From Escherichia phage vojen, in sequence record NC_049824.1: a stretch of 50,709 nucleotides of DNA. One strand, 5' to 3'. Position numbers and translations under genes: made by a program. Shown here in pieces: positions 20,807 through 37,951 of the stretch. The notes below the pieces were generated by a model. That model ran no database searches. It was not told where the DNA came from and saw only the letters and a list, made by a program, of their open reading frames with translations. Every line of letters starts with the position of its first letter. The first letter of the stretch is position 1.

Positions 20807-23479
20807 ATGTCAGAACAATACGCAGGCTTGACGCTTGGGGTTGACGTTTCTCAACTCAACAATGCTGTAAAGTCTTTGCAGCAATTCAAGAAGGCAAACG
20901 ACGACGCAAAGGGAAGCGTTGAGAGTTTTGTTGATTCAGAGGTTGTTGCAAGACAAAGAGCCAAACAACTTGCTGAGGAATTGGCAAAGCAGAAGCAAGA
21001 ATTTAAAGCAATTCAGTCGGCAATAGATCCGACAGCAAGCAAAATGGATAAGTTGCGCCAGGCTGCGACACAGCTTGATGCGCTTTGGAAAAAAGGAATT
21101 GTTCCTGATGACACATTCTTTGAGTTAGGATCAATTCTTGAGACGCAGCAAAATAAACTGATCGCAACTAAAAAGGCGCTAACTGAAGAAGGCCGCGCGG
21201 CTCTTGAGGAAGCAAAAAATAAGGCAAGAGCAGAGGCTGAGGCAAGAAAGTTCATTGCGGCATTGCAGGCGCAAGCTGACGCAGCGGAAAAAACAAAGTC
21301 AGAGCTTGTCGAAATGAGAGCCGCACAACTTGGAGTTAGTGCAGAGGCCGCGCCATTTATTGCAAAAATGAAGGAGCAGGAAAAACAAGCCTCAAAACTT
21401 GGCGTTTCTATGGGGCAGTACAAGCAAGCAATGGCGCAATTGCCAATGCAGATCACTGACGTTGTTACTTCTCTTGCTTCAGGAATGCCAGTATGGATGA
21501 TCGCAATCCAGCAGGGCGGGCAAATCAAGGACTCATTCGGCGGTGTTGCTAATACGTTTAAAGCGCTAATGACATTTGTCACGCCTTTAAGTGTAGGGAT
21601 GACGGCGCTGACTGGTGCTCTTGGTTATGCTGCATATAATGCATACAAAGCAAATGCACAACTGAAGGAGATCACAAAAACCGTTCAGGAGGCAACTGGT
21701 CTTTCAGGTGAGTTTGCAGAGCGGATCGCAACTGGAATCCAGGCGCTATCTGACAAGACAGGTGAGAGCGCCGATAATCTGGCAAAGGCATACATAAGCA
21801 CTAAGGATGGAGCAACCGAGGCCATACAAAAACTCGTCGATGTTGGGTTTACCTATGACGAAGCAAAGGTAAAGGTAAACGAATACAAGAATGCATCAAG
21901 TTTTGTAAGTCTCAACAATGAGATTGCTGATCACAAAAACAAGGTTCTTGAGCTTGGCGATTCGTGGTATGAAGTCTTAAAAGCGAAGAATGATTATGCT
22001 TCACCGTCCGGCGGGCTGTTGGGGAAAGAGCTTGGTTATGTAAATCCTATGCTGCAATTTGCGAAGAACACCTATGAGGATATAGGAAAGATTGTAAAAG
22101 ATGCGAATAAGGATATGGCGGAACGAGCAGCACGCATCGACAGAGAAAACCTTTCCTTAAACAGAGTTCGAGCGGCGCAAGAGGCTTTAAACAAAGCCAT
22201 AGAGGATCAGAAGAACGTAGCAAGGACAGCAGACGAAGAGTTGAAAAAGCGCGCGGCTGAGAACGTGGAGTTCAGGCGAAAAGAGCTTGAAGAGGCGAAG
22301 AAGGCGCAGCAGCAAAAGGAAAAAGTTGGTGGAGTTGTAAAAGCACCAACAGAGCAGCTTGATAAGGAGCTATATGTTCTCAAGGCGCAACTTGAAACGC
22401 TGAAAGAGCACCGAACTGTAAATGATGTTATTTCACGCCAGAGGCAATCTTTGTGGAGCATTGAAAAGCAGATCCAGATCCTGGAGGAAGCGCAAAGCAA
22501 ACGCAAGCTGACAAAGGCTGAACAGGCGTTACTAAACGAGCAAAAAGCAGTTATTGCTATGGCAAAAGAAAAGGCCGAGATAGGCGATCAGATTGTTTTG
22601 CAACAAAGAAAGAACAAGCAATACCAGGAAGGGCTTAAATTCATTCAGCAAACATCAGATGCTATTGACGCTATGAACTTGCGACAGTCTGGAGCTACAG
22701 ATCTGCAAATCCAGCGAGAGCTTGAGTTGAAGAAGTTGCGAACTGATTATGTTGCTGGCGGCGGTAGTATCGACGATGAAATTTATCAGCAGATGGAAGC
22801 AAAGCTGAAAGAGTATTACGCAACTGAGGATCAACTTAGAAATAACTGGATTGCAGGAGCAAAAAACGCATGGGAGGTTTACGGACAAGATGCAATGGAT
22901 ATGTACGGCAACGTGCAAGATATTGCAAGCGAGGCGCTCAACGGTCTAACCAACCAAATGGCTACATTCCTTGCAACAGGCAAGGCAAACTTTAAGAGCT
23001 TCGCAACGTCAATCATCCAAATGATTATCCAGATGATCACGAAGATGGTTATCTTTAATGCCATATCTGGTGCGATTGGAGGTGACACTTGGACGATTGG
23101 AAGCCTTCTTAAAAATGTTGGATTTGCAACTGGTGGATACACTGGCGACGGCGGGAAGTATGAGCCAGCAGGTGTTGTTCATAAAGGCGAGTTTGTCATG
23201 ACGAAGGAGGCCACGAAGCGGATCGGAGTTGGAAACCTTTACAAAATGATGCGCGGTTATGCAAATGGCGGCGTTGTTGGCGGCACTTCATACACTGGCG
23301 GCGGCGTTTCATCAGGAGCAACAAACCTTAATATTGGTGGGATTAGCGTTGATATTAACAACGGAAACGATCCGAAGGGGTTAGAGACTGGCGTAAAAAT
23401 GATTTTCACTGATATGATTAAGCGTTCCTGTACGCAGGGTGGGGAAGTTTACGAATTTGTTATGTCTAAGCGGGGGTGA
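20807..23479 (+). CDS. tail tape measure protein
   Basis: 890 aa; extended Ala/Lys/Glu/Gln-rich coiled-coil-like sequence; hydrophobic and Gly-rich C-terminal region. Confidence 0.85.
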
Positions 23480-26043: not shown

Positions 26044-29000
26044 ATGGCTGAAAATATGATAACGGGAAGTAAGGGCGGATCATCAAAACCTTATGTTCCG
26101 AAAGAGATGGAAGATAACCTGATCTCAATCAACAAAATCAAAATCCTTCTTGCCGTTTCCGATGGTGAGTGCGATCCAGATTTTACACTTCGCGATCTGT
26201 ATCTTGATGATGTTCCGGTAATTGCAGACGACGGAACTATTAACTACCAGGGTGTGAAAGCTGAATTTCGACCTGGAACGCAGACGCAAGATTACATCCA
26301 GGGGTTTACTGACACATCAAGCGAAGTGACGCTGGCGCGTGACATTACGACGACAAATCCTTATGTAATTTCCGTAACCAACAAAACATTATCGGCCATC
26401 AGAATCAAAATGCTAATGCCAACAGGCATTAAGCAAGAGGACAACGGCGATCTTGTCGGCGTTAAGGTTACTTATGCTGTTGATATGGCTGTTGACGGAG
26501 ACTCTTACAAAGAAGTATTGCGAGACACTATCGAAGGTAAAACGCGGTCAGGTTACGACAGGAGCCGAAGGATTGACCTTCCGGAATTTAATGATCGCGT
26601 ATTACTTAGGGTTAGAAGGGTTACGGCAGACAGCGCATCTTCTCGTGTTACTGATCTGATTAAGCTACAAAGTTACGCTGAGGTTATTGATGCAAAATTC
26701 CGTTATCCTCTGACTGGTCTTGTATACGTTGAATTTGACAGTGAGTTGTTCCCTAACCAGATCCCTAACATTTCAATCAAGAAGAAATGGAAGTTGATTA
26801 ATGTTCCGAGCAATTACGATCCGGTAATGCGAGAGTATCACGGTTCATGGGACGGTACGTTCAAGAAAGCGTGGTCGAACAATCCGGCTTGGGTACTTTA
26901 TGACATTATCACAAACCAGCGATACGGATTAGATCAGAGAGAACTTGGTGTACAGGTTGACAAATGGAGTCTTTACGAAGCTGCGCAATACTGCGATCAG
27001 AAAGTGCCTGACGGAAAAGGCGGTACAGAGCCGCGTTATCTATGCGACGTTGTGATTCAAAGCCAGATTGAGGCTTATCAGCTTATTCGTGATATTTGCT
27101 CAATCTTCCGAGGCATGAGCTTTTGGAATGGCGAGAGCTTGTCAATCGTCATTGATAAGCCGCGCGATCCGTCGTACATCTTCACCAATGACAACGTTGT
27201 TGATGGTGATTTTCAGTACACAACAGCAAGCGAAAAGAGCATGTACACGCAGTGCAACGTGACGTTCGACGACGAACAAAACATGTATCAACAGGACGTA
27301 GAGGGCGTATTCGACACCGAGGCAGCATTGCGCTTTGGATACAATCCTACAAGCATAACCGCGATCGGATGTACACGCAGGAGTGAGGCTAATCGGCGCG
27401 GTCGATGGATACTAAAAACCAACTTGCGCAGCACTACGGTAAACTTTGCTACTGGACTGGAAGGCATGATCCCATCAATAGGTGATGTGATTGCTATTGC
27501 TGACAATTTTCACAGCAGTAACCTTAAATTAAACCTATCAGGGCGCGTGATGGAAGTTTCCGGCTTGCAGGTGTTCGCTCCGTTTAAGATTGACGCGCGA
27601 CCAGGTGATTTCATTATCATCAACAAGCCGGACGGAAAGCCAGTTAAGCGCACAATCTCAAAAGTAAGCGGTGACGGAAAAACTATTGAACTAAACATTG
27701 GGTTTGGGTTTGAAGTTAAACCTGACACGGTTTTTGCAATCGACCGCACTGATATTGCATTGCAGCAATACGTTGTAACGAGTATCGGCAAAGGTGATGA
27801 TGATGATGAGTTTACATACTCCATCACGGCTGTTGAATATGATCCTAACAAATACGACGAGATTGATTACGGAGTAAACATTGACGACAGACCAACTTCA
27901 ATTGTCCAGCCTGACACAATGGCAGCGCCTGAAAATGTGCAAATATCCTCATACTCGCGAATTGTCCAGGGTGCAAGCGTTGAAACAATGGTTGTGTCGT
28001 GGGATAAAGTACCTTACGCATCGCTGTATGAAATGCAATGGCGAAAAGGTGATGGCAACTGGCTGAATACACCACAGACCGCAAACAAAGAAATTGAGGT
28101 TGAAGGTATTTATTCAGGAAACTACCAAGTAAGGGTCAGATCTGTTTCTGCTTCCGGTTCCACGTCGCCGTGGTCAAGAATTGTGACAGCATCACTGACT
28201 GGTAAGGTGGGAGAGCCAGGCGCGCCAGTTAACTTAACTGCATCCGACAATGAGGTTTTTGGCATTCGTGTAAAATGGGGCATGCCTGAAGGGAGTGGAG
28301 ACACTGCATACATTGAGCTTCATCAGTCGCCAGATGGAACAGCGGAAAACTCAAGCCTATTAACGCTGATCCCATATCCACAATATGAATACTGGCACGG
28401 GACGCTTCCGGCTGGTCATGTTGTATGGTATAGAATCCGAAGTGTTGACAGAATCGGCAACGTTTCCGGCTGGACTGATTTTGTTAGAGGCATGGCTTCA
28501 GATGATGTTGAGGCTGTTTTAGGAGATATTCTTGATAAGATTTTTGATACCGAAGCAGGAAAGGATCTGAAAGAGAACGCCATTGATAGCGCAAACAAAA
28601 TCAAGGATCAGGCACAAAGCATCATTCAAAACGCATTGGCGAATGATACAGACGTTAGGATTATGAGGAAGGAGAACGGAAAACGCAAAGCCGAGTTTAG
28701 ACAATCAATCCAATTGATCGCAAGTGAAACTGAAGCGCGCGTTACCGCAATGACGCAACTTAAGGCTGAATTTGACGAGGAAATAACTAGCGAAGTAACG
28801 AGACTCGATCAGGCAATTGCAACAGAATCGGAAACGCGAGCAACAGCCATTGAGGAATTGAAATCACAGATTGGTGATGATATTCAGGGGCAATTAACGC
28901 GGGTTGAGGAAGCGATTTCAAACGAAACAGAGGCGCGCGTTTCGGCTGATACAGCACTAACAGCGAAGTTTGGAGATGTTGAATCGGCGCTTACTGAAAA

Positions 29001-29469
29001 ACTTGATTCATGGGCTGGCGTTAATGGAGTTGGCGCACAGTACGCAATGAAACTTGGATTGACATACAACGGGCAGAAGTACAGCGCCGGAATGGTCATG
29101 CAGCTATCAAACAGCGCTCAAGGGTTGATTTCACAAATCCTTTTTGATGCTGGAAGATTTGCGATCATGACGAGTTCTACCGGAGGGTCGTATACATTGC
29201 CTTTTGTGGTCGAAAACAACCAAGTTTTCATTAACAGCCTGTTAGTGAAAAATGGTTCAATCACCAATGCGATGATCGGTAACTTCATCCAATCAAACAA
29301 TTACGTTTGGAATCAAACAGGATGGAGGCTGGATAAAAACGGCACGTTTGAAAATTATGGCTCTACTCCTGGAGAGGGAGCCATGAAAATGACAAACGAA
29401 ACGATCAGCGTTAGGGATGCAAACGGCGTTTTGCGTGTTCAGATTGGTAGGCTGACTGGTACGTGGTAA
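26044..29469 (+). CDS. central tail fibre / host specificity protein (lambda gpJ-like)
   Basis: 1141 aa; position after gpI; coiled-coil-like stretch near the C-terminus. Confidence 0.85.
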   Translation: MAENMITGSKGGSSKPYVPKEMEDNLISINKIKILLAVSDGECDPDFTLRDLYLDDVPVIADDGTINYQGVKAEFRPGTQTQDYIQGFTDTSSEVTLARDITTTNPYVISVTNKTLSAIRIKMLMPTGIKQEDNGDLVGVKVTYAVDMAVDGDSYKEVLRDTIEGKTRSGYDRSRRIDLPEFNDRVLLRVRRVTADSASSRVTDLIKLQSYAEVIDAKFRYPLTGLVYVEFDSELFPNQIPNISIKKKWKLINVPSNYDPVMREYHGSWDGTFKKAWSNNPAWVLYDIITNQRYGLDQRELGVQVDKWSLYEAAQYCDQKVPDGKGGTEPRYLCDVVIQSQIEAYQLIRDICSIFRGMSFWNGESLSIVIDKPRDPSYIFTNDNVVDGDFQYTTASEKSMYTQCNVTFDDEQNMYQQDVEGVFDTEAALRFGYNPTSITAIGCTRRSEANRRGRWILKTNLRSTTVNFATGLEGMIPSIGDVIAIADNFHSSNLKLNLSGRVMEVSGLQVFAPFKIDARPGDFIIINKPDGKPVKRTISKVSGDGKTIELNIGFGFEVKPDTVFAIDRTDIALQQYVVTSIGKGDDDDEFTYSITAVEYDPNKYDEIDYGVNIDDRPTSIVQPDTMAAPENVQISSYSRIVQGASVETMVVSWDKVPYASLYEMQWRKGDGNWLNTPQTANKEIEVEGIYSGNYQVRVRSVSASGSTSPWSRIVTASLTGKVGEPGAPVNLTASDNEVFGIRVKWGMPEGSGDTAYIELHQSPDGTAENSSLLTLIPYPQYEYWHGTLPAGHVVWYRIRSVDRIGNVSGWTDFVRGMASDDVEAVLGDILDKIFDTEAGKDLKENAIDSANKIKDQAQSIIQNALANDTDVRIMRKENGKRKAEFRQSIQLIASETEARVTAMTQLKAEFDEEITSEVTRLDQAIATESETRATAIEELKSQIGDDIQGQLTRVEEAISNETEARVSADTALTAKFGDVESALTEKLDSWAGVNGVGAQYAMKLGLTYNGQKYSAGMVMQLSNSAQGLISQILFDAGRFAIMTSSTGGSYTLPFVVENNQVFINSLLVKNGSITNAMIGNFIQSNNYVWNQTGWRLDKNGTFENYGSTPGEGAMKMTNETISVRDANGVLRVQIGRLTGTW

Positions 29470-29476
29470 AATAAAA

Positions 29477-29500
29477 GCGGGGCATTTGCCCCGCATTTAT
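29477..29500 (+). terminator. Putative terminator
   Basis: GCGGGGC-ATTT-GCCCCGC hairpin followed by ATTTAT (weak T-run). Confidence 0.5.
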
Positions 29501-29512
29501 GGAGGTTTAATA

Positions 29513-29818
29513 ATGGCTGAATATGGTGTTTCAACGTGGGATGCTAACGGAAAATATAATAACTACGGGATTAAGCCAGTTTCCGTTGTTGGTGTCATCA
29601 GTCTTGCCGCTGGTCAGACAAGCGGATCGTGGAGCTTTAGCATTCCAAGTGGTTTTAAGGTTGGGTATGTTGTTTCACTTGATGAAGGCGCTAGAGGAGT
29701 TGGAAGGGAAATAGTGGCATCTGGAAATACAATAAGAATTAGTCCTACATCGTCAGTTGGTCCAAATAGGTATTCTTCTTCAAAGTGCGAGTTAGTTGTT
29801 TTTCTTGAGAGGGCTTAA
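29513..29818 (+). CDS. putative tail-fibre-associated protein (101 aa)
   Basis: GGAGG RBS; starts MAEYG like the next gene; AT-rich. Confidence 0.45.
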   Translation: MAEYGVSTWDANGKYNNYGIKPVSVVGVISLAAGQTSGSWSFSIPSGFKVGYVVSLDEGARGVGREIVASGNTIRISPTSSVGPNRYSSSKCELVVFLERA

Positions 29819-29819
29819 A

Positions 29820-30461
29820 ATGGCTGAATATGGAGCAATGTTATCTTTATCAAATGGGAATCCATTTATCACACCAAAATCAACGCCATTTTGCTTATAT
29901 GGCAAGTACACTTATTCATCTTCTGGCAATTCTGCCTATCATAGCGCAAGCGCAAATATACCATTAAATCAATCTTATCCATGTATGGCATTTATAAAAA
30001 CAACAAACACACAGCAGCCAACTGCATTAATAGCTTACAGGAATGGTGGCAACATTTATGTAAACGGAGGCAATCCATACGGGCAATCATTTACAATGAC
30101 TGTTTATATATTTGCCATATTCCCTCAAACTCTGCCAAAATATGGCATGGCTATATGGGATGCAAGCGGCAAGTTGGTTTTAACTAATGAAAGCAGGGTG
30201 CTAACAGACCTTGTGACAATTGGTGCTCATGGTTCTTCAGGGGGAACTAATATAGATCAGACATTATCTGGTTCTTATGCCGTTTGCCCATCAAGGCTTG
30301 GTGCTGTTATAGGTATGGGTGCGTCTGACATATATACATCATGCAGGTATGATGGTTCAAGCACAAGGATAGGTGCGGCAAGGACAACTCCAGGAACAGG
30401 TTCTATAACAAATAACGGAAACTCAATAATTGCCATCAAGACTGATATTTACGACCAATAA
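29820..30461 (+). CDS. putative tail-fibre-associated / receptor-recognition accessory protein (213 aa)
   Basis: Starts MAEYG; internal YGMAIWDASGKL resembles the N-terminus of the upstream gene; Gly/Ser/Thr-rich; AT-rich. Confidence 0.45.
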   Translation: MAEYGAMLSLSNGNPFITPKSTPFCLYGKYTYSSSGNSAYHSASANIPLNQSYPCMAFIKTTNTQQPTALIAYRNGGNIYVNGGNPYGQSFTMTVYIFAIFPQTLPKYGMAIWDASGKLVLTNESRVLTDLVTIGAHGSSGGTNIDQTLSGSYAVCPSRLGAVIGMGASDIYTSCRYDGSSTRIGAARTTPGTGSITNNGNSIIAIKTDIYDQ

Positions 30462-30465
30462 AAAG

Positions 30466-30492
30466 GGGCTTTCGCCCCTTTATTTTTATTTA
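30466..30492. terminator. Bidirectional intrinsic terminator
   Basis: GGGGC-TTTC-GCCCC hairpin flanked by A-run upstream and T-run downstream, between convergent genes. Confidence 0.8.
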
Positions 30493-30717
30493 CAGACTGC
30501 AATCAGCGTTTTTAAAGTTGTCAATGTTTACCCACTGAAAATTAAACGGATAGCCAGCCTTAACAAGAGTGCGGTCGCCAACTCGTTTTACTCCGAAAAT
30601 AGCAACTGAATACTGCATTCCGCTATTTTCATAAATAGCCGTGCATTCACGTTTAGGCATATTTGCGCACCCAGTCAGGGTTACGGTGGCAATCAAAGCG
30701 GCGATAAATTTTTTCAT
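30490..30717 (-). CDS. small outer-membrane lipoprotein, candidate superinfection-exclusion protein (Cor/Llp-like)
   Basis: Signal peptide with lipobox LTGC; mature ~58 aa with two Cys; GGAGA RBS; sits beside the host-range genes on the opposite strand. Confidence 0.5.
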   Translation of the reverse strand: MKKFIAALIATVTLTGCANMPKRECTAIYENSGMQYSVAIFGVKRVGDRTLVKAGYPFNFQWVNIDNFKNADCSL

Positions 30718-30771
30718 CTTGGTGTCTCCTTAGTTGTTGTTGGTTGCAACTATACACGATCTTGCGGTGTG

Positions 30772-30791
30772 CGTTTAGCAAAAAGTGCTAT
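30772..30791 (-). promoter_or_regulatory. Conserved element, variant (minus-strand reading ATAGCACTTTTTGCTAAACG)
   Basis: Variant motif upstream of the lipoprotein gene with TATAGT at a ~17-bp gap. Confidence 0.5.
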
Positions 30792-30920
30792 TCTTGTTCT
30801 TTTGTTATTCGGTGTTCTTAAATCTGCGGAGGCTTAAATTTAGCTCAAAATGTGAGCAACAATAGAGCGCTATACATACAGATAAATATATATACATACA
30901 TACAAATCAATAAGTTAGTA

Positions 30921-31045
30921 GTATATATATTTATATTTGTTCTTTATTGTTATCTATGTTTTGTGTGATTTTGTGTGTCTGGTGTTTTTTATGTGATTAT
31001 GTATGTGTCAGTGGTTGTGTGTGTCTATATATCTATATCCGGCGC
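30921..31045. repeat. GT-rich low-complexity element, copy B
   Basis: AT-rich tract, then ttgtgtgattttgtgtgtctggtgtttttt...gtggttgtgtgtgtc, then CCGGCGC clamp; parallels 1441-1580. Confidence 0.5.
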
Positions 31046-31161
31046 AAATGTAGGAACAAGAGAACAAAAAGACAACGCGGATATTTATCAATAACTTACA
31101 TGTAAGTTTTGTTATCTAGGTTGGTGAGAACGTTGTTAGAACAGAAAAAACAAAATAACTA

Positions 31162-31189
31162 TTGACTAAACGCATCAAATAGCTACAAT
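31162..31189 (+). promoter_or_regulatory. Sigma70-like promoter for the recombination operon
   Basis: TTGACT (31162-31167), 16-bp spacer, TACAAT (31184-31189), ~30 bp upstream of the exonuclease gene. Confidence 0.5.
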
Positions 31190-31218
31190 GCAGACATACC
31201 AACCAATGAGGGCAAATC

Positions 31219-32280
31219 ATGAATAAGTTTATGGCGTACACCAGCGAAGAAATGAGCAATGAGCTTTATCACGATCCAGAAGCGTGGACGGCTGATTATG
31301 TTAGCGGCTCAAGCCTGGCAGAGATTTACAGCACATGCCCGGCAGCGTGGAAGTTCAAGCCGCGTGACGATAAGAGCAAGGCGCTAGTTTTCGGTACGCA
31401 GTCGCATACCAACTTTGAAAGCAAGGAGCTTTTCGAAAAAACATATCGCCGTGCGCCATCGCCAGAAGACTTTAAGGATCTGATAACTAGTCAAACTGCG
31501 CTTGCCGCAAAACTGAAATCATTTGGCCTGAAAGGTACAACCGGAAAGACTTATCCAGACCTTATCAAAATGTTGGTTGACTGCGGAGAAGACCTTAACG
31601 TCATGTGGTTAATCGACATGATCGCAGAAAGTCAGGCCAGGGCAGATGGGGTTCAGTTAATCGAAGCTAAAGATTACGATGCGTGCGTGGCAATGCGCCA
31701 GGTTCTGGAATCAATACCGGAACATAACGCATGTATGAATAGCAAGACGGCACAACGTGAATTATCGTTGTTCGGTGAAATTAACGGCGTAAAAGTCAAA
31801 GTGCGATGCGATCACGTTGACGTAACAAAGAACGTCACCGCAACGCTGATTGATGGTTACGATGAAAAAGGTCAGCCGATTTGCCGCGATATTATTTATC
31901 CAGAGGCCATTGTGATCACAGACTACAAAACTACAATGAGCGCGAATCCGGCTGAGTTTATGCGCCTGGCTTACAATCACGGCTATTATTTGAAAATGGC
32001 GTTGCAATGTGATTTATTCAGAAAAGCGTATCCAGAAGAAAAGCGACCTATAGTTGTGCGACTGTTAGCGCAAGAGAAGAAAGAGCCTTATTTGCCGTTG
32101 GCTTTCCGCATGAATAGCGAGCAATTGAAGATCGGGCGCATTCAGTACATGAGCGTAATTAACCAGTTTGCCATGTGCCAGCAACATGACGTTTGGCCTT
32201 CGTATTCAAACGGCGAGCCGGAGGTTTGCCTTGATACTCCTGATTGGGTGCGACGCCAGTTTAAGCAATATCTTATTTAA
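31219..32280 (+). CDS. putative recombination exonuclease (PD-(D/E)xK family)
   Basis: Candidate catalytic segments CDHVD and ITDYKT; directly upstream of Erf and SSB. Confidence 0.55.
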   Translation: MNKFMAYTSEEMSNELYHDPEAWTADYVSGSSLAEIYSTCPAAWKFKPRDDKSKALVFGTQSHTNFESKELFEKTYRRAPSPEDFKDLITSQTALAAKLKSFGLKGTTGKTYPDLIKMLVDCGEDLNVMWLIDMIAESQARADGVQLIEAKDYDACVAMRQVLESIPEHNACMNSKTAQRELSLFGEINGVKVKVRCDHVDVTKNVTATLIDGYDEKGQPICRDIIYPEAIVITDYKTTMSANPAEFMRLAYNHGYYLKMALQCDLFRKAYPEEKRPIVVRLLAQEKKEPYLPLAFRMNSEQLKIGRIQYMSVINQFAMCQQHDVWPSYSNGEPEVCLDTPDWVRRQFKQYLI

Positions 32281-32361
32281 ACAGCACAAATAGCTAAACA
32301 AATGAAAAATGCGGTGTTATAATTCACCGCATAAGTTAACAACAAGAGTAAGGAAATAAAC

Positions 32362-32640
32362 ATGGAAAACAAACAAGTGTCAGAGGTAGTAGTTCATATT
32401 AATAATTTTGCAACTGGCATGGCTATGTTGCTTCGTGACTTTGTTGCGCCGCTTGATCCAACAGCAGGCGCAGAAGAAATGGAGTACATCAGAAAAGTAA
32501 TTGATGCAGTCGATAACGTCGTGCTCATTGCAACAATGAGAGAAGAAAACGAGGAAGCAATTAAGGCGGTAAAAGAAAGTTCTGATCGCATGATGGAAAA
32601 TCTGATTAAATTACACACCAAAGAAGAAACAAAACATTAA
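32362..32640 (+). CDS. hypothetical protein (92 aa)
   Basis: ORF with AAGGAAA RBS between exonuclease and Erf genes. Confidence 0.5.
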   Translation: MENKQVSEVVVHINNFATGMAMLLRDFVAPLDPTAGAEEMEYIRKVIDAVDNVVLIATMREENEEAIKAVKESSDRMMENLIKLHTKEETKH

Positions 32641-32685
32641 CAGCAATAAGGCGGCGAAAGCCGCCATTAATTACGGGAATTAATC

Positions 32686-33342
32686 ATGAAACTATCAGAG
32701 CAATTCGACAAGGTTTTACCAGCACTGCACAAGGCGCGCAGTTTGTTTGTAAAGGTTAAGAAGGATAAACAAAATACACACTTAAAAAACCGTTACGCTA
32801 CACTTGATTCCGTTCTTGATGCAATCACTCCAGCATTGAATGATAACGAGCTAATGTTGATGCAGGATATGATTGAAAGCGAGCAACCCAACCGCATCAA
32901 AGTTGAAACAACAGTTCTGCATGTTTCCGGTCAGTGGGTGAAATTCTATGCTGAATTACCAATAGTTAAAAACGATCCTCAAGGTGTAGGATCTGCATTT
33001 ACATACGCGCGTCGTTATGCAGCCGCCGCAGCATTTGGCTTAAGCCAGGCAGACGATGACGCACAGATTGCCGTTAAATCTGCAAACGACTGGAAGCGTG
33101 ACATTGAGAAATGCGAAAGCGTAAACGAATTGCAAGAAGTGCTTAAATCAGCATGGAAGGCAAGCGATCCGGCAAGCAAGCAGGTAATTAAAGAGCATTA
33201 CGAGAAGCGCAAGGCAGAGCTTGAGATCGGCAAAGCACGAGGATTTAATCCAGCGCAACCAAAGCAAAATCTTGCATCGCCAGAAGTTGACACAAAAAAC
33301 GACGAGCAAGTAAAATCGCAAAGTATCACTGATTTTGAATGA
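32686..33342 (+). CDS. erf: Erf-family single-strand annealing protein
   Basis: N-terminal [18 protein letters not shown] and central [23 protein letters not shown] match the Erf family signature as recalled for P22 Erf. Confidence 0.7.
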
Positions 33343-33385
33343 TTGACAGGGGCGATTGCGCCCCTTTTTTACAGGAGAATAAAAC

Positions 33386-33838
33386 ATGCATATTATTACT
33401 GGTGAGATCCGAAAAGAGCCGCGAGTAAAGCAAATGCCTAACGGCAGCACACTTTATGTGGTTGAACTTTCAGAGCGATACAAAGATAAAGATGGAAACT
33501 GGCAATATACAAACTACAGTTTCTTTTTTAATGCTAAAACAGAAGGTCTTAAGGGTTGGTATGATGAGGCGTTCCAGGTTGGCAAGGTTATTTCTGTATC
33601 TTGCGACACGCTGCGCATTGAAACGCGTGAATATAACGGAAAGATGTATTCAAGTTTAATGCCAGGAGGATTTGCAAATCTTATCTTCAGTCAGCGCGGG
33701 GAAAGCCAGCAACAATATCAGCAGCGAACGCAAGGAGGATGGGGCCAACCACAACAACAGAATCAACCGCAACAACAGCAACAGCCAAGACAAAGCAATC
33801 AACCTCCTATGGACTTTGACGACGACATTCCTTTCTGA
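33386..33838 (+). CDS. ssb: single-stranded DNA-binding protein
   Basis: Gln/Pro-rich linker and acidic C-terminal tail DFDDDIPF typical of SSB. Confidence 0.8.
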   Translation: MHIITGEIRKEPRVKQMPNGSTLYVVELSERYKDKDGNWQYTNYSFFFNAKTEGLKGWYDEAFQVGKVISVSCDTLRIETREYNGKMYSSLMPGGFANLIFSQRGESQQQYQQRTQGGWGQPQQQNQPQQQQQPRQSNQPPMDFDDDIPF

Positions 33839-33842
33839 TCAA

Positions 33843-33866
33843 CAAGGGGGCATTACGCCCCTTTTT
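33843..33866 (+). terminator. Putative terminator after ssb
   Basis: GGGGG...CCCC hairpin followed by TTTTT. Confidence 0.5.
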
Positions 33867-34110
33867 CACTTTCAGCCATCCCAAGAACGGCAATAACCTT
33901 AACAGCAATTCGCTTTGCAAGTTCGGTTTGATGAGCGTTAAGTTTTCCAGTGGTCATTATTGACAACATTCCGGTCATACTTCCAAGCCCGTTAAAATCT
34001 GACATTGCCGATTTCATGATTGATATTGGTGAGTGACCTTCATCAGCTATTGTATGCGCTCTCTCTGACAGGTCTTTAACTACCTGATCTATTCCTTCAC
34101 TTTTCGTCAT
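33853..34110 (-). CDS. hypothetical protein (85 aa)
   Basis: ORF on minus strand; last gene of the minus-strand tail-fibre block. Confidence 0.45.
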   Translation of the reverse strand: MTKSEGIDQVVKDLSERAHTIADEGHSPISIMKSAMSDFNGLGSMTGMLSIMTTGKLNAHQTELAKRIAVKVIAVLGMAESEKGA

Positions 34111-34588
34111 TTTCTTTTCCTTCAGGAGTTGATTGCTGTTCTGGCATTACAGGCCACGGGCTAATTGATTCCCTTTCTGCTACTGGTTTTTCAGGTTCAA
34201 TACCTAAAAACTTTCCTACAAACTCACCAACAAAATTTGAACTATCGCTTACATAAACATGCATTCTGTCAAGATCTGCAACTGTAACGCTGTTTGGTGC
34301 GATCATAATTCGCTGTTGGTGAAAACCGATATACATCACATTTGCCGGACGCTCAATAGTTCCCATATTTGGCGCAATTACACCCATTATCCAACAATAA
34401 TGAATATTGCCATCAAGCGGCTCACATCCGGCGTTAAGCCAGTTTACTTTCTGGTGTGGGAATGCCATTGATGAATCAGTAGCATCACGCCGCAACGACC
34501 ATTTAACGCCGCCAATCTCAATGATTTGTTTCGGCCTCATTCCGTTGAATTGAGTCACGCCAGCGCCATTTTGATTAATGTTTTGCAT
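34097..34588 (-). CDS. hypothetical protein (163 aa)
   Basis: ORF on minus strand downstream of the tail-fibre genes. Confidence 0.5.
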   Translation of the reverse strand: MQNINQNGAGVTQFNGMRPKQIIEIGGVKWSLRRDATDSSMAFPHQKVNWLNAGCEPLDGNIHYCWIMGVIAPNMGTIERPANVMYIGFHQQRIMIAPNSVTVADLDRMHVYVSDSSNFVGEFVGKFLGIEPEKPVAERESISPWPVMPEQQSTPEGKENDEK

Positions 34589-34602
34589 ATCGGTTTACCT
34601 TG

Positions 34603-34926
34603 TTACATTGATTTCATTTTACGCAATGCGCAGATACAAGCGGCAGCAAGATCGGTTAATTCTTTCTCAATGCCATGATGCGAGCCATCTACCTTTTCTG
34701 TCATTAGCTCTTTGTATTCCATTTCTACAATCGACATTAAGCCGCCTGGCTTGTCAATGTGCGCGTCCCAGGTTTTAGGATAGTGCTTAGTTCTTTCCAT
34801 AACACTTCCCATAACTGAATCATGTTTGCTATCTCGCTCATAATCATCATCATGATCATCACTCCCGATTGAAACTCGCGGCAAATGAATGCGCGGTATT
34901 TTATAGCCAGCATAACGGATCTTCAT
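34603..34926 (-). CDS. hypothetical protein (107 aa)
   Basis: ORF on minus strand. Confidence 0.45.
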   Translation of the reverse strand: MKIRYAGYKIPRIHLPRVSIGSDDHDDDYERDSKHDSVMGSVMERTKHYPKTWDAHIDKPGGLMSIVEMEYKELMTEKVDGSHHGIEKELTDLAAACICALRKMKSM

Positions 34927-34975
34927 TATCTCGCCCTCTTGATGAAAAGCGCCCCGAAAGGCGCTTGATTTATTA

Positions 34976-35677
34976 TTAGCCGCAGCAGCCAGTAGGCGGA
35001 GTCTGCGGAGTAGGCAACTTGAAGTTTACCAATTGCTCTACCTGGTTGATTTTGCAATTCAGTGCGGCGGTCTGGTTTGCCTGAGATAGAGCAAAACGCG
35101 CTTCCTGCAATTGAGCTTTCATATCGCAAATCAAAACAGCCTGAGAATCAGCGAACTGTTGACGAATCAGATCTCGCGTTGCGTTACCTTGTCGCTCAAT
35201 GTTCAAGTTAGTCTCGCAGCAGCATCTCTCCGCTGCAATCTGTGCCTGATAGGAACGCTCAAGAGCATTAACATCAGCAGCATTAATCGCAGCAACTGTC
35301 TGGTTAGTACCGTTAACAATCGCGGTATTCAGTCCGGCGAAACCTTGCACCGATGCAAGCAGGTTTTGCGTATTCTGGCTGGTAATGCCGTTAAATGTTG
35401 ATGCGGCGGAGCGCTCAACGGCAAGGTTTGTGGAGTTTTGGCCTTGCAGAGTTTGCAGTCCCAGGTTGTTTACGCCTGTCTGGATGTTATTAATACCATC
35501 AAGAACAGCGTTAGCACCGACAGCAACAGCCGCACCATCACCACCATAACCACCACGACCATTAAAGCCGTTACCAAACCATGACCCAATCAGGCCGCCA
35601 ACAGCACCACCAAGACCAGCCGCGCCAGCTTCGCCACCAAAACCACCACCAGTAGGGAGTAAAGTCATATCTGACAT
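34976..35677 (-). CDS. glycine-rich protein with cysteine clusters (233 aa)
   Basis: N-terminal ~50 aa Gly-rich; Asn/Gln/Thr-rich middle; CCCETN and terminal TGCCG; GAGGA RBS. Confidence 0.55.
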   Translation of the reverse strand: MSDMTLLPTGGGFGGEAGAAGLGGAVGGLIGSWFGNGFNGRGGYGGDGAAVAVGANAVLDGINNIQTGVNNLGLQTLQGQNSTNLAVERSAASTFNGITSQNTQNLLASVQGFAGLNTAIVNGTNQTVAAINAADVNALERSYQAQIAAERCCCETNLNIERQGNATRDLIRQQFADSQAVLICDMKAQLQEARFALSQANQTAALNCKINQVEQLVNFKLPTPQTPPTGCCG

Positions 35678-35854: not shown

Positions 35855-37870
35855 TTATTTATTGAGCAGTGCAGCAACAGCCGCCTTTAATTCGTCTATC
35901 TCCTTTTGCTGTTTTTCGATCATTCCTCCCATGTAAACCATAGCGCAAGCCATATCAGTTAGCATAACGTTGCTATCAAGCGCTAAGGTATCATCCTTTC
36001 TGTCAGTTTCAATCTGGCGATCAATGTATTCCTCGCCATTTTCATCAACCCCGATCACATCTTCAAATACTGGCGAGCCTGGGACAAGTTTCACGTATTG
36101 CGGATCGATTTTTAACAGGTCTTGAGCTATCAGGCCAAAACGCTGGATATCAGATCCATTGTATTTAAACATGGTTGGCAACCATTGCATCACGCGATCA
36201 TAGCTTTCCTTTCCGTCCGTGTACTGAATATCGTGCTTTAAATCACGATCAGATGTTGGGTTTTTTGCAAAGTCATAGTTTCCACCCCACGGATCATTAC
36301 CCCAAGAATAAATGTCACCAGACTTACCAAAATTATATGCGCGATGATAACGACCATCACCTAACATGTGAATAGCAACCTGAGGCCAATCGGTAGTGCC
36401 GTCTGAAATAATACCTAAAGACGTTCTCATATAGTAACCACCGTCAGACTGAGAGCCACCTGACACTATCGGGGACCAGCCGCTGTTATTTTTATTAACG
36501 GTGTCAGCCCAAAACGGAGTTAACCTGTTATCTGCATCGGCGTCCCAGCCACCCATATAGCAACGACCCATAAAACCACGCGGCGATCTTATATACCCGC
36601 TAGCCTGAGTGTCATTCGGCTCAGGTATGAAGTTAAAAACGACACCGGAGTATCCTGGTTTATTTGGACTAATGTATAGCTGGGCATTATTTAGATCCGT
36701 TCCTTCGCCCCTGACTGCTCCGAACTGCCAGTATCCATCGTACCAATTCCCTTGCAATAGGTTTACCCACCCACCTGGAGAGGAGTCGCCACCGATGTTC
36801 GTCAGATATATGCGTTTATCACCACCAACATCAGTTTTACAGCCGACAATGTGAGTTTGCGGCACTAGAATATCGCCGTCTGTAGCCGTAATGCTCTTAA
36901 ATTGAACGTCTTGCGCATTTCCAAGCCCAAGATTATTACGAGCACCTGCGGCATCAGTTGCCCCAGTCCCACCAGTCGCAATTTCAAATGGCTTGGTGTC
37001 AGATCCGTCACCTTTCTGATAAACTAGTAATCCGTCATCTCTGATAACCAGCCTATAAGATCCTGTTGGCGAGTAAATAAGCGTATGTGCACCAAGGGTA
37101 TCAAAAGGACCGATTCGCATGTTTTGACGAGCAATTTCTATGTTAGATAGATCTGAAAGGTTCGCATCTTTTCTAAGAAGATTTTCAGCATCAAGGCTTT
37201 TAGCAAATTCTTCGGCCTCATTGCGCGCCATAACAGCGCCGTTTTTTGCAGTTTCAGCGGCGTTATTTGCAGATTGAGCGCCAGTCATGTATTGCTGGGC
37301 TGAATCCCTTGCTGAAATAGCTTCGTTTTTCAGATTAGAAACATCACCCTTTATCTGATTCATTTCTGAAACAGCCTGATCTTTAGTTTGGTTTACAGCT
37401 AAAACACCTTGATCGCGTGCGGAATTAACTTCCGTTATCGCAGAATCTTTAATCTGTTGCGTTTGCGCCTTGATTGCGTTAGTGTCTGCTTTAACCTGAT
37501 TAGCCAGATCTTGCAACTGTTTTAGGTCAAAGTTTTTGAAAAATTCAATAGCTTCCTCGATCTGAGTTTCTTTGCTTTGATAGTAACGCAGCGTTTCCGC
37601 TACATCTTGCGCCAGGCCATCAACAGTGATTGAGTCATGCAGCAAAATAATGTAGTTGCTTCGCCCAATTTCAGCGCCGCCAGTTGTGATGGCGCGGATT
37701 TGTGTATCGCTGATAACTTCACTGATCACAGCCGCTTGAAATGGTGCATCAATGAAAAAGATTGTTGCACCAGGGCGAATGAGCGCTAGTTGCTCTCGCC
37801 ATTTCGTGTCGTATCCAGTGATATAACCCTGAGCGTCCATTGACGCTTGTCCGGTTCTGTAAATTGCCAT
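35855..37870 (-). CDS. tail fibre protein with C-terminal intramolecular chaperone (peptidase S74-like) domain
   Basis: Start moved to ATG with GGGAGA RBS; coiled-coil-like middle; C-terminal [11 protein letters not shown] segment resembling auto-cleaving chaperone domains. Confidence 0.7.
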
Positions 37871-37928
37871 GCGCTTTCTCCCATGTTGCATGTTAATGTC
37901 AATGAAGATAATAGCATTCGTTAAGGCC

Positions 37929-37951
37929 AAAAAAAACCCCGCAATGCGGGG
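37929..37951 (-). terminator. Rho-independent terminator after the primase gene
   Basis: Minus-strand CCCCGC-ATT-GCGGGG hairpin followed by TTTTTTTT. Confidence 0.8.

Follow-up and report, generated by a model that had tools for sequence, protein, structure and literature searches.

Among the described phage proteins of the Erf family, Gp77 of phage SECphi27 has been examined by cryo-electron microscopy (cryo-EM) and mass photometry, and was found to form a ring of approx. 600 kDa with 24-fold symmetry (Zhang et al., Nature 2026, PMC13017515). Gp77 is essential for this phage, it is structurally like the Erf protein of phage P22, and it adjoins a putative SSB (a protein that binds single-stranded DNA); it is also the trigger around which the immune RNase RAZR assembles (PMC13017515). 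P22 Erf is presumed to circularise a genome that has terminal redundancy (cited in PMC13017515). Likewise, it has been reported that phage Stevie escapes the Retron-Vpa2 defence through mutations in the genes of an exonuclease and an ERF-domain recombinase located 'in the same operon' and, in parallel, that mutations in lambda exo and beta escape the same retron defence (10.1101/2025.10.22.683967). In this work, genes of this kind were analysed computationally in a 50,709-nt stretch of DNA from Escherichia phage vojen (NC_049824.1; the whole stretch is hereafter the window), where positions 31219-33838 very probably hold the homologous-recombination module of the T1 family (Drexlerviridae), formed by a RecE-like exonuclease, an Erf protein and an SSB.

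Phage vojen, isolated from Danish wastewater, is classified in Hanrivervirus, Tempevirinae, Drexlerviridae (PMC7552041), and the window appears to be its complete genome. The module comprises four genes on the plus strand that are separated by gaps of 43-81 nt, all of them with an ATG start and an AG-rich ribosome-binding site. These are exo (31219-32280; 353 aa), for a predicted RecE-like PD-(D/E)xK exonuclease that is called 'exonuclease VIII' in the annotation of relatives; orf92, also named vojen_52 (32362-32640; 92 aa), which occupies the exo/erf slot in a lineage-specific manner; erf (32686-33342; 218 aa), for an Erf-family single-strand annealing protein (SSAP); and ssb (33386-33838; 150 aa), for a phage SSB. 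These four open reading frames (ORFs) lie exactly where they had been placed by the original prediction, which had been drawn from the sequence letters before any database was searched.

Core proteins of the module

The original prediction had proposed that exo codes for a PD-(D/E)xK exonuclease, erf for an Erf-family annealing protein, and ssb for an SSB with the canonical acidic tail, and had suggested profile searches as a check; these now support all three assignments, through DUF3799 for exo, Pfam ERF for Erf and PHROG 44 for SSB. The exo product matches the PDDEXK-like Pfam family DUF3799 (PF12684) with an E-value of 1.6e-16 and 61.3 bits, above the cut-off of 26, and PHROG 412, 'exonuclease VIII', with an E-value of 1.8e-99 across residues 3-350. 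The match to the NCBIfam model of exodeoxyribonuclease VIII (E=4e-9) covers model positions 758-861 of 877, that is, the C-terminal nuclease domain only. Residues D224, D235 and K237 of exo align to the active-site motif RPD...DVK in the nuclease domain of RecE (PDB 3H4R) with an identical 11-residue spacing; we take the RecE counterparts to be D748, D759 and K761. From the profile match and the aligned catalytic triad, exo is assigned to the RecE/DUF3799 group of PD-(D/E)xK exonucleases.

The Erf assignment lies far above the Pfam cut-off. Residues 14-149 match the ERF family (PF04404) with an E-value of 4.3e-25 and 88.9 bits (cut-off 25), and the protein also matches PHROG 155 (E=4.5e-47). 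It is 83% identical to SECphi27 Gp77 (PDB 9Y6U/9Y9C; E=8e-117), and the similarity extends to P22 Erf, with 22% identity over the N-terminal domain (residues 26-124) and a pairwise E-value of 8e-6. Since the 83%-identical orthologue Gp77 forms a 24-mer ring, vojen Erf is expected to be a homo-oligomeric ring as well. A further comparison of both proteins concerns residue 31 (codon at 32776-32778), which is threonine in vojen and serine in Gp77, while S19 and D41 are kept in vojen; the substitution S31R is one of three that allow SECphi27 to escape from RAZR (PMC13017515).

The third protein matches PHROG 44 with an E-value of 2.4e-26. Nevertheless, several observations weigh against the reading of the locus as a RecE-like exonuclease, Erf and SSB module. 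The sequence match of exo to the RecE structure 3H4R is weak (E=0.07), and even Gp77 is termed only a 'putative' recombinase (PMC13017515). In addition, SSB falls below the cut-off of the Pfam SSB family (PF00436), with 16.4 against 26 bits and residues 3-47 only, and below that of TIGR00621, with 26.5 against 53.95. Therefore, the fold of this protein was tested by structure prediction. An AlphaFold2 model built from 18 homologues showed beta strands and one helix, with a predicted local distance difference test (pLDDT) score of 78-92 (approx. 90) over residues 1-100. According to this model, the protein consists of an OB-fold domain (residues 1-103) and a Q/P-rich linker predicted to be disordered from residue 104 to 150. 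The top 50 matches of a Foldseek search against PDB were all bacterial-type SSB, SsbB or PriB, with a probability of 1.00 and a target TM-score of approx. 0.5-0.57. Moreover, the protein ends in the eleven residues PPMDFDDDIPF, a tip shared unchanged with the SSB of Klebsiella and E. coli, and P141, D143, F144, D145, D147, I148, P149 and F150 within this tip are invariant in the 18 homologues. The PHROG match, the predicted fold and the tip together characterise this protein as a divergent phage SSB, with a predicted OB fold and the enterobacterial acidic tip. The assignments of the three core proteins are thus made with high confidence; their biochemical activities are inferred.

By analogy with lambda Red, RecET and P22 Erf, from which resection, annealing and SSB coating are deduced, the exonuclease would resect the 5' strands where the linear genome, on injection or during replication, exposes double-strand ends; this genome is assumed to be terminally redundant, as in T1. 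The Erf ring would bind the exposed 3' single strands and anneal complementary ones, so that the genome could be circularised or concatemerised via its terminal repeats and broken molecules could be rescued. The phage SSB would coat the single-stranded DNA, and its host-identical acidic tip would give access to the partners that bind the SSB tail, the annealing protein among them. The dependence of SSAPs on the C-terminal tail of SSB is addressed by two reports (10.1101/2020.04.14.041095 and PMC13490951).

Distribution of the module

The block exo-erf-ssb was found in all ten of the other Drexlerviridae examined, T1 included, although for the Rogunavirinae member the exonuclease was recognised by the record label only. 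The groups that carry it are Hanrivervirus, Tlsvirus, Warwickvirus, Henuseptimavirus, Klebsiella phage K50, Tunavirus, Webervirus, Rogunavirinae and two metagenomic contigs, and the same gene order is seen in pSf-1, CF1, Klebsiella phage K50, MartyMcPhage, N5822, SECphi27, SegesCirculi, LeonhardEuler, Opt-719 and the two metagenomic contigs. At the nucleotide level, positions 31100-33900 are 96.5% identical to Shigella phage pSf-1, and 153 phage records match this region; in 111, the match covers at least 80% of the query. Using tblastn, the Erf type of vojen was detected in 1052 phage records.

In other words, this is a textbook T1-like recombination block, annotated in hundreds of genomes, whose Erf orthologue has been solved by cryo-EM and is essential. 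The module is already known as annotation, and increasingly by experiment, and it is ordinary apart from orf92; what is new here is limited to orf92 and to the architecture of a promoter placed in a hairpin, which are described below.

Records named 'Campylobacter phage A13a/A127/A120' and 'Streptococcus phage MBBL140' (approx. 47-49 kb) also carry homologues of orf92 and/or Erf from T1-like coliphages. The Campylobacter-named records are 87-99% identical, and MBBL140 matches orf92 at 37% only; these records are probably contaminants or were assigned to the wrong host.

Transcription of the module

The original prediction held that the genes are co-transcribed from one strong sigma70-like promoter upstream of exo and that the unit ends at a terminator. 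The upstream promoter and the end terminator are both borne out, but a single promoter is too simple a picture in view of two further promoter-like elements, P2 and P3, conserved in 11 and 8 genomes, respectively, and of a hairpin with a U tract between erf and ssb. Judging from the conservation of these elements, expression probably proceeds from three nested units and not from one operon: P1 would read exo, P2 would read orf92 and erf, and P3 would read ssb.

P1 is a sigma70-type promoter-like element on the plus strand (31162-31189; TTGACT-16-TACAAT) with 10 of 12 consensus matches; it is located approx. 30 nt before the start of exo and has an A-rich tract just 5' of it (approx. 31140-31160). 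Both of its hexamers, the -35 TTGACT and the -10 TAyAAT, have stayed the same in 9 of 10 Drexlerviridae genomes, where the flanks show a column identity of approx. 67%; the exception is Webervirus. P1 is accepted as a real promoter because its hexamers are conserved in nine of these ten diverged genomes, and not because of its match to the consensus, as 15 promoter-like matches were found in the region against 12 expected from shuffled sequence, that is, no excess. The same chance frequency can be used in favour of a single operon, in which all four genes would be read from P1 to the hairpin at 33844-33864, the internal hairpins would stabilise or process the mRNA and the internal promoters would be non-functional. 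This alternative is possible, if rather doubtful. The four genes are co-oriented with gaps of just 43-81 nt, as would suit one operon, and the authors of the Retron-Vpa2 study refer to the corresponding Stevie genes as one operon (10.1101/2025.10.22.683967).

P2, an internal promoter-like element on the plus strand (32288-32332), lies directly after the exo stop codon. It comprises the conserved block AAATAGCTAAAC, a -35-like TAAACA (32295-32300) and a perfect extended -10, TGTTATAAT (32315-32323), which is carried by the 5' arm and loop of an 8-bp hairpin (32309-32332). Both TGNTATAAT and the extended -10 nonamer occur only once in the 50.7-kb genome. The motifs AGCTAAA and G.G.TATA.T are invariant in 11 genomes that represent all subfamilies, and the variable base is the third-to-last of the -10 hexamer; this position is among the less critical ones of the hexamer. 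In the stem, compensatory changes affect five of the eight pairs, with 91% of the cells paired compared with 21-49% in slid controls, and RNA folding gives -13.2 kcal/mol (z=-4.4). A minus-strand terminator was considered for this hairpin and ruled out, since the minus-strand T run present in vojen is absent from CF1 and T1. P2 is always located directly upstream of the next recombination gene: orf92 in the case of Tempevirinae, erf in that of T1 and of Webervirus. In Opt-719, it lies after an inserted HNH gene and is still directly before erf. That the key bases of the extended -10 (T, G, TATAnT) are retained in 11 genomes while the stem changes by compensation, and that P2 stays before erf despite the insertion after exo in Opt-719, both argue against a single operon with idle internal promoters. 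On the other hand, the conservation of the hairpin could reflect an RNA element and not a promoter.

Downstream of orf92, a GC-rich hairpin on the plus strand (32650-32665; GGCGGC-GAAA-GCCGCC) separates this gene from erf; it has no U tract and a folding energy of -14.0 kcal/mol (z=-3.4). This hairpin is present in pSf-1 and CF1, it has a compensated stem in Klebsiella phage K50, and it is absent in Warwickvirus, where the gap between orf92 and erf is 3 nt.

P3 (33287-33316, plus strand; TTGACA-18-TAAAAT) lies in the last codons of erf, before ssb, and with 11 of 12 positions it is the best consensus match of the region. Its motifs GTTGA and GTAnAATC do not vary across 8 genomes, not even at the synonymous third positions of two valine codons, whereas the 18-nt spacer differs, and so does the peptide encoded by it. 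The retained synonymous positions count against the single operon; nonetheless, P3 conservation could partly reflect a conserved C-terminus of Erf. Between erf and ssb, a terminator-like hairpin on the plus strand (33348-33371) of 7 bp, six of them GC, is followed by TTTTTT (-13.6 kcal/mol) and lies 15-21 nt before the ssb start. It is found in six of six genomes, with a U tract in vojen, K50 and MartyMcPhage, an interrupted one (TTTCTT) in pSf-1 and none in T1 and CF1. This element bears on the question in two ways: an intrinsic-terminator-like hairpin with its U tract ahead of vojen ssb is at odds with one continuous transcript, but a hairpin of this kind 15 nt before ssb would also lie in the leader of the P3 transcript, which is awkward for P3 driving ssb, and there is no space for a promoter between this hairpin and the ssb start, as the single operon would have it. 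A further point against three units is that P2 and P3 are deduced from sequence conservation only.

The terminator that the original prediction had placed at the end of the module corresponds to an 8-bp hairpin (33844-33864, both strands) common to ssb on the plus strand and to the convergent minus-strand genes. The hairpin has a U tract; on the plus strand, it folds with -12.8 kcal/mol (z=-3.7) and is followed by TTTTTCACTTT. The T1 record annotates a bidirectional rho-independent terminator after ST27, at the site equivalent to this one. RNA folding thus places a stable hairpin after each of the four cistrons, and a search of 30400-34200 against Rfam gave no match. In the favoured arrangement of three nested units, the hairpins behind the individual cistrons would serve as leaky terminators or would stabilise mRNA ends, and the shared terminator would end the block. 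The conserved promoter-like elements and hairpins predict a transcript map, which could be a guide when the exo/Erf/SSB set is employed as a recombineering cassette.

The orf92 gene

The second gene of the module had been described in the original prediction as coding for a 92-aa protein where a nuclease inhibitor or accessory factor might be expected. The existence and position of the gene stand, and orf92 is a real conserved coding gene; a role as inhibitor or accessory factor is neither supported nor excluded, as no similarity to Abc1, Abc2, Pfam, PDB or BFVD entries was detected. The protein is acidic, with an isoelectric point of 4.9, and AlphaFold2 predicts three helices at a moderate pLDDT of 68. 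Homologues are present in 196 phage records, among them the RefSeq genome of Citrobacter phage Stevie (T1-like, approx. 50 kb). A profile search of 1.84 billion representative proteins returned 26 clusters, 24 of which contain proteins of 36-109 aa (some of these are partial sequences), the others being matches due to chance or repeats. Matches to a 293-aa repeat protein that resembles the FG-GAP type and to two proteins of more than 4000 aa were judged to be repeat-driven chance.

PHROG 11265 and many RefSeq and GenBank records label this protein 'tail length tape measure protein'. A tape measure was ruled out by the size of 92 aa, by the location in the recombination block and by the lack of significant similarity to the true tape measure protein of this phage, which is encoded by the 890-aa ORF at 20807-23479 (PHROG 24, E=1e-193). 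This label is a propagated misannotation and should be removed.

In every member of the family whose context was inspected, including the most divergent (approx. 30% identity), orf92 sits between exo and erf. It has no counterpart in T1, LeonhardEuler and Webervirus, in which P2 is all that lies between exo and erf. The core machinery can do without orf92, because these three keep exo-erf-ssb in its absence; orf92 is a Tempevirinae-type addition downstream of P2, outside the core machinery. It is also the fastest-evolving gene of the block: in comparisons that give 56-87% identity for exo, Erf and SSB, its own identity is 31-35%. In Escherichia phage Opt-719, of the Rogunavirinae, the same junction holds an HNH endonuclease gene (1978-2433 of that record), upstream of P2, which shows that the exo/erf junction is a recurrent insertion site.

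Searches of the protein against Pfam, NCBIfam and PDB, by sequence and profile, gave noise only, with Pfam also run on eight family members, and Foldseek against PDB and BFVD gave nothing at E<0.1 except its own family; a match to an 'antitoxin' among the PHROGs was likewise weak (E=0.0014). A relationship to P22 Abc1 or Abc2 was ruled out (hhalign probability 0.2%). No RecBCD inhibitor of the Gam or Abc2 kind was found in the module, lambda Gam being covered only through the Pfam and PDB searches, and orf92 is the sole candidate for such a role.

These results bear on three possible roles of orf92. It has been considered that the protein is a functional partner of the core machinery: it might link the exonuclease to the Erf ring as an adaptor, or it might modulate a nuclease or inhibit RecBCD, by analogy with lambda Gam or P22 Abc1/Abc2. 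Its position between exo and erf in all members checked, even at approx. 30% identity, would agree with a partner of this kind, as would the position downstream of P2 that it shares with erf; however, synteny is weak evidence when the genome of the whole family is collinear, and exo-erf-ssb persists without orf92 in T1, LeonhardEuler and Webervirus. Similarly, orf92 is small, acidic and helical, as are several known inhibitor proteins, and P22 erf is also flanked by small accessory genes (arf, abc1 and abc2), but the absence of sequence or profile similarity to Abc1 and Abc2, and of any fold match in PDB or BFVD, counts against the proposal, which we regard as decidedly unlikely.

Alternatively, orf92 could be a moron-type passenger, for example a host-takeover or anti-defence factor, that occupies a permissive slot between exo and erf and has no part in the recombination chemistry. 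The variability of this junction, which is empty in T1 and Webervirus and holds the HNH gene in Opt-719 and orf92 in Tempevirinae, is in line with a passenger, and the divergence of orf92 relative to its neighbours is typical of genes involved in host-phage conflict; besides, host defences (RAZR, Avs21 and Retron-Vpa2) are known to be set off by the neighbouring Erf and exonuclease proteins. Against a passenger, orf92 has no promoter separate from that of erf, with P2 serving both, and in Warwickvirus its end and erf are 3 nt apart, as would fit coupled expression; furthermore, no homology to described anti-defence proteins turned up, although no dedicated anti-defence library was searched. 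A passenger is therefore offered tentatively, as a possibility that could well prove wrong.

A third proposal is that the orf92 family may add a fourth component, so far unrecognised and evolving fast, to the recombination module of Tempevirinae. This small, acidic and helical protein would be co-expressed with erf from the conserved promoter embedded in the hairpin, and would modulate or shield the Erf ring or the exonuclease, for instance against the RAZR, Avs21 or retron sensors, or would inhibit a host nuclease. In this specific form the idea is speculative and unlikely to hold. In any case, a syntenic, fast-diverging and phage-only family located beside two proteins that are sensed by immune systems makes orf92 a reasonable candidate for a deletion screen.

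Neighbouring genes and mosaicism

The flanks agree with the original prediction, which had placed the module between the tail genes and a minus-strand fibre block. The upstream side consists of the gene of the central tail fibre J (26044-29469), two genes of membrane proteins like N15 gp22 and gp23, and the minus-strand gene of the Cor lipoprotein; on the downstream side, four small minus-strand ORFs are followed by the minus-strand tail-fibre gene (35855-37930; 691 aa). These four ORFs (33853-35677, minus strand) code for proteins of 85, 163, 107 and 233 aa, all in PHROGs of unknown function, and the 233-aa product has a Gly-rich N-terminus and a C-terminal end ...PPTGCCG. In T1, CF1 and Klebsiella phage K50, the tail-fibre gene comes directly after ssb, as opposed to vojen, where the four small ORFs come first.

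The position of the module between the tail genes and the fibre block had been taken as a mosaic junction, and this is only partly correct. In the comparison with pSf-1, the nearest relative, a single homologous block with 94.7% identity starts within cor (30665) and stops within the tail-fibre gene (36285). Positions 29303-30664 are replaced in pSf-1, so that the genes like N15 gp22 and gp23 and part of cor give way to an unrelated minus-strand membrane-protein gene; at the other side the homology ends at approx. 36285, and the tail-fibre gene keeps its C-terminal part only. Breakpoints do exist nearby; however, from their positions (approx. 29303-30664 and approx. 36285) they flank a 5.6-kb block that holds the module and are therefore not the edges of the module itself. 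The set exo-erf-ssb belongs firmly to the backbone of the Drexlerviridae, and it stays intact where its neighbours differ, as in Webervirus.

Between cor and exo there is a non-coding stretch of approx. 440 bp (30782-31161) of unusual composition, with (ATAC)n and TATATA runs followed by T/G-rich blocks in which TTGTGTGATTTTGTGTG is repeated; one half is an imperfect inverted repeat of the other. This region, with its pattern of blocks, is kept in pSf-1, MartyMcPhage, a metagenomic relative, CF1 and T1 (527 bp). Inspection of the alignment by eye revealed no conserved ORF in it, and it had no Rfam match; possible readings are a replication origin and a divergent regulatory region. On the minus strand upstream of cor (30740-30798), the sequence TTTGCTAAACGCA-...-TATAGT includes a GCTAAAC block that is common with P1 (GACTAAACGCA) and P2 (AGCTAAACAAA), which could be a shared promoter-proximal motif or the product of chance.

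Comparison with known systems

With lambda Red (exo-bet-gam) and RecET of the Rac prophage, the vojen module shares the logic of a gene for a 5'-3' PD-(D/E)xK exonuclease beside that of a single-strand annealing protein. As in these two-component recombinase systems, the vojen exo and erf genes are neighbouring and co-oriented, and their co-expression is presumed. In contrast with both systems, the vojen annealing protein belongs to the Erf family and not to Red-beta or RecT, the phage has its own SSB, and no Gam homologue was detected; the vojen exonuclease, with 353 aa, matches the C-terminal nuclease domain of RecE only.

The arf-erf-abc1-abc2 region of P22 has in common with vojen the alignable N-terminal domain of Erf (22% identity, E=8e-6) and the presence of small accessory genes beside erf. 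Nevertheless, it has no dedicated exonuclease and no SSB gene in the region examined, and Abc1 and Abc2 are unrelated to orf92. P22 modifies the host RecBCD enzyme through Abc2; it is a temperate phage, and its erf gene is expressed from the PL operon.

T1 (NC_005833) has the same three core genes, ST29-ST28-ST27, in the same order and orientation, after cor and before a minus-strand tail fibre. Its products are 63% (ST29, the exo orthologue), 52% (Erf) and 60% (SSB) identical to those of vojen, and it likewise has a long upstream non-coding region, the -35 and -10 boxes of P1, the P2 hairpin and promoter, and the bidirectional end terminator. It differs in that it has no orf92, so that P2 alone separates exo and erf, and in that a U tract is missing from its erf-ssb hairpin. 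The 'DNA arrest' genes 3.5 and 4 of T1 may be the counterparts of the recombination functions proposed here. Regarding ST28 (Erf), its annotated start at 31484 is an ATG that overlaps the TATAAT in the loop of the P2 hairpin, and an ATG at 31517, after AGGAGA, gives MQLSPETNEILPALF..., which aligns with the N-terminus of vojen Erf; the RefSeq start of ST28 is probably 11 codons too early.

Finally, Gp75-Gp78 of SECphi27 show the same four-gene layout as vojen, with an orf92 homologue of 85 aa. In SECphi27, orf92 abuts erf without a hairpin between them, and Gp77 has S31 where vojen Erf has T31. The identity to the vojen proteins is 80% for exo, 83% for Erf and 87% for SSB, but only 31% for orf92.

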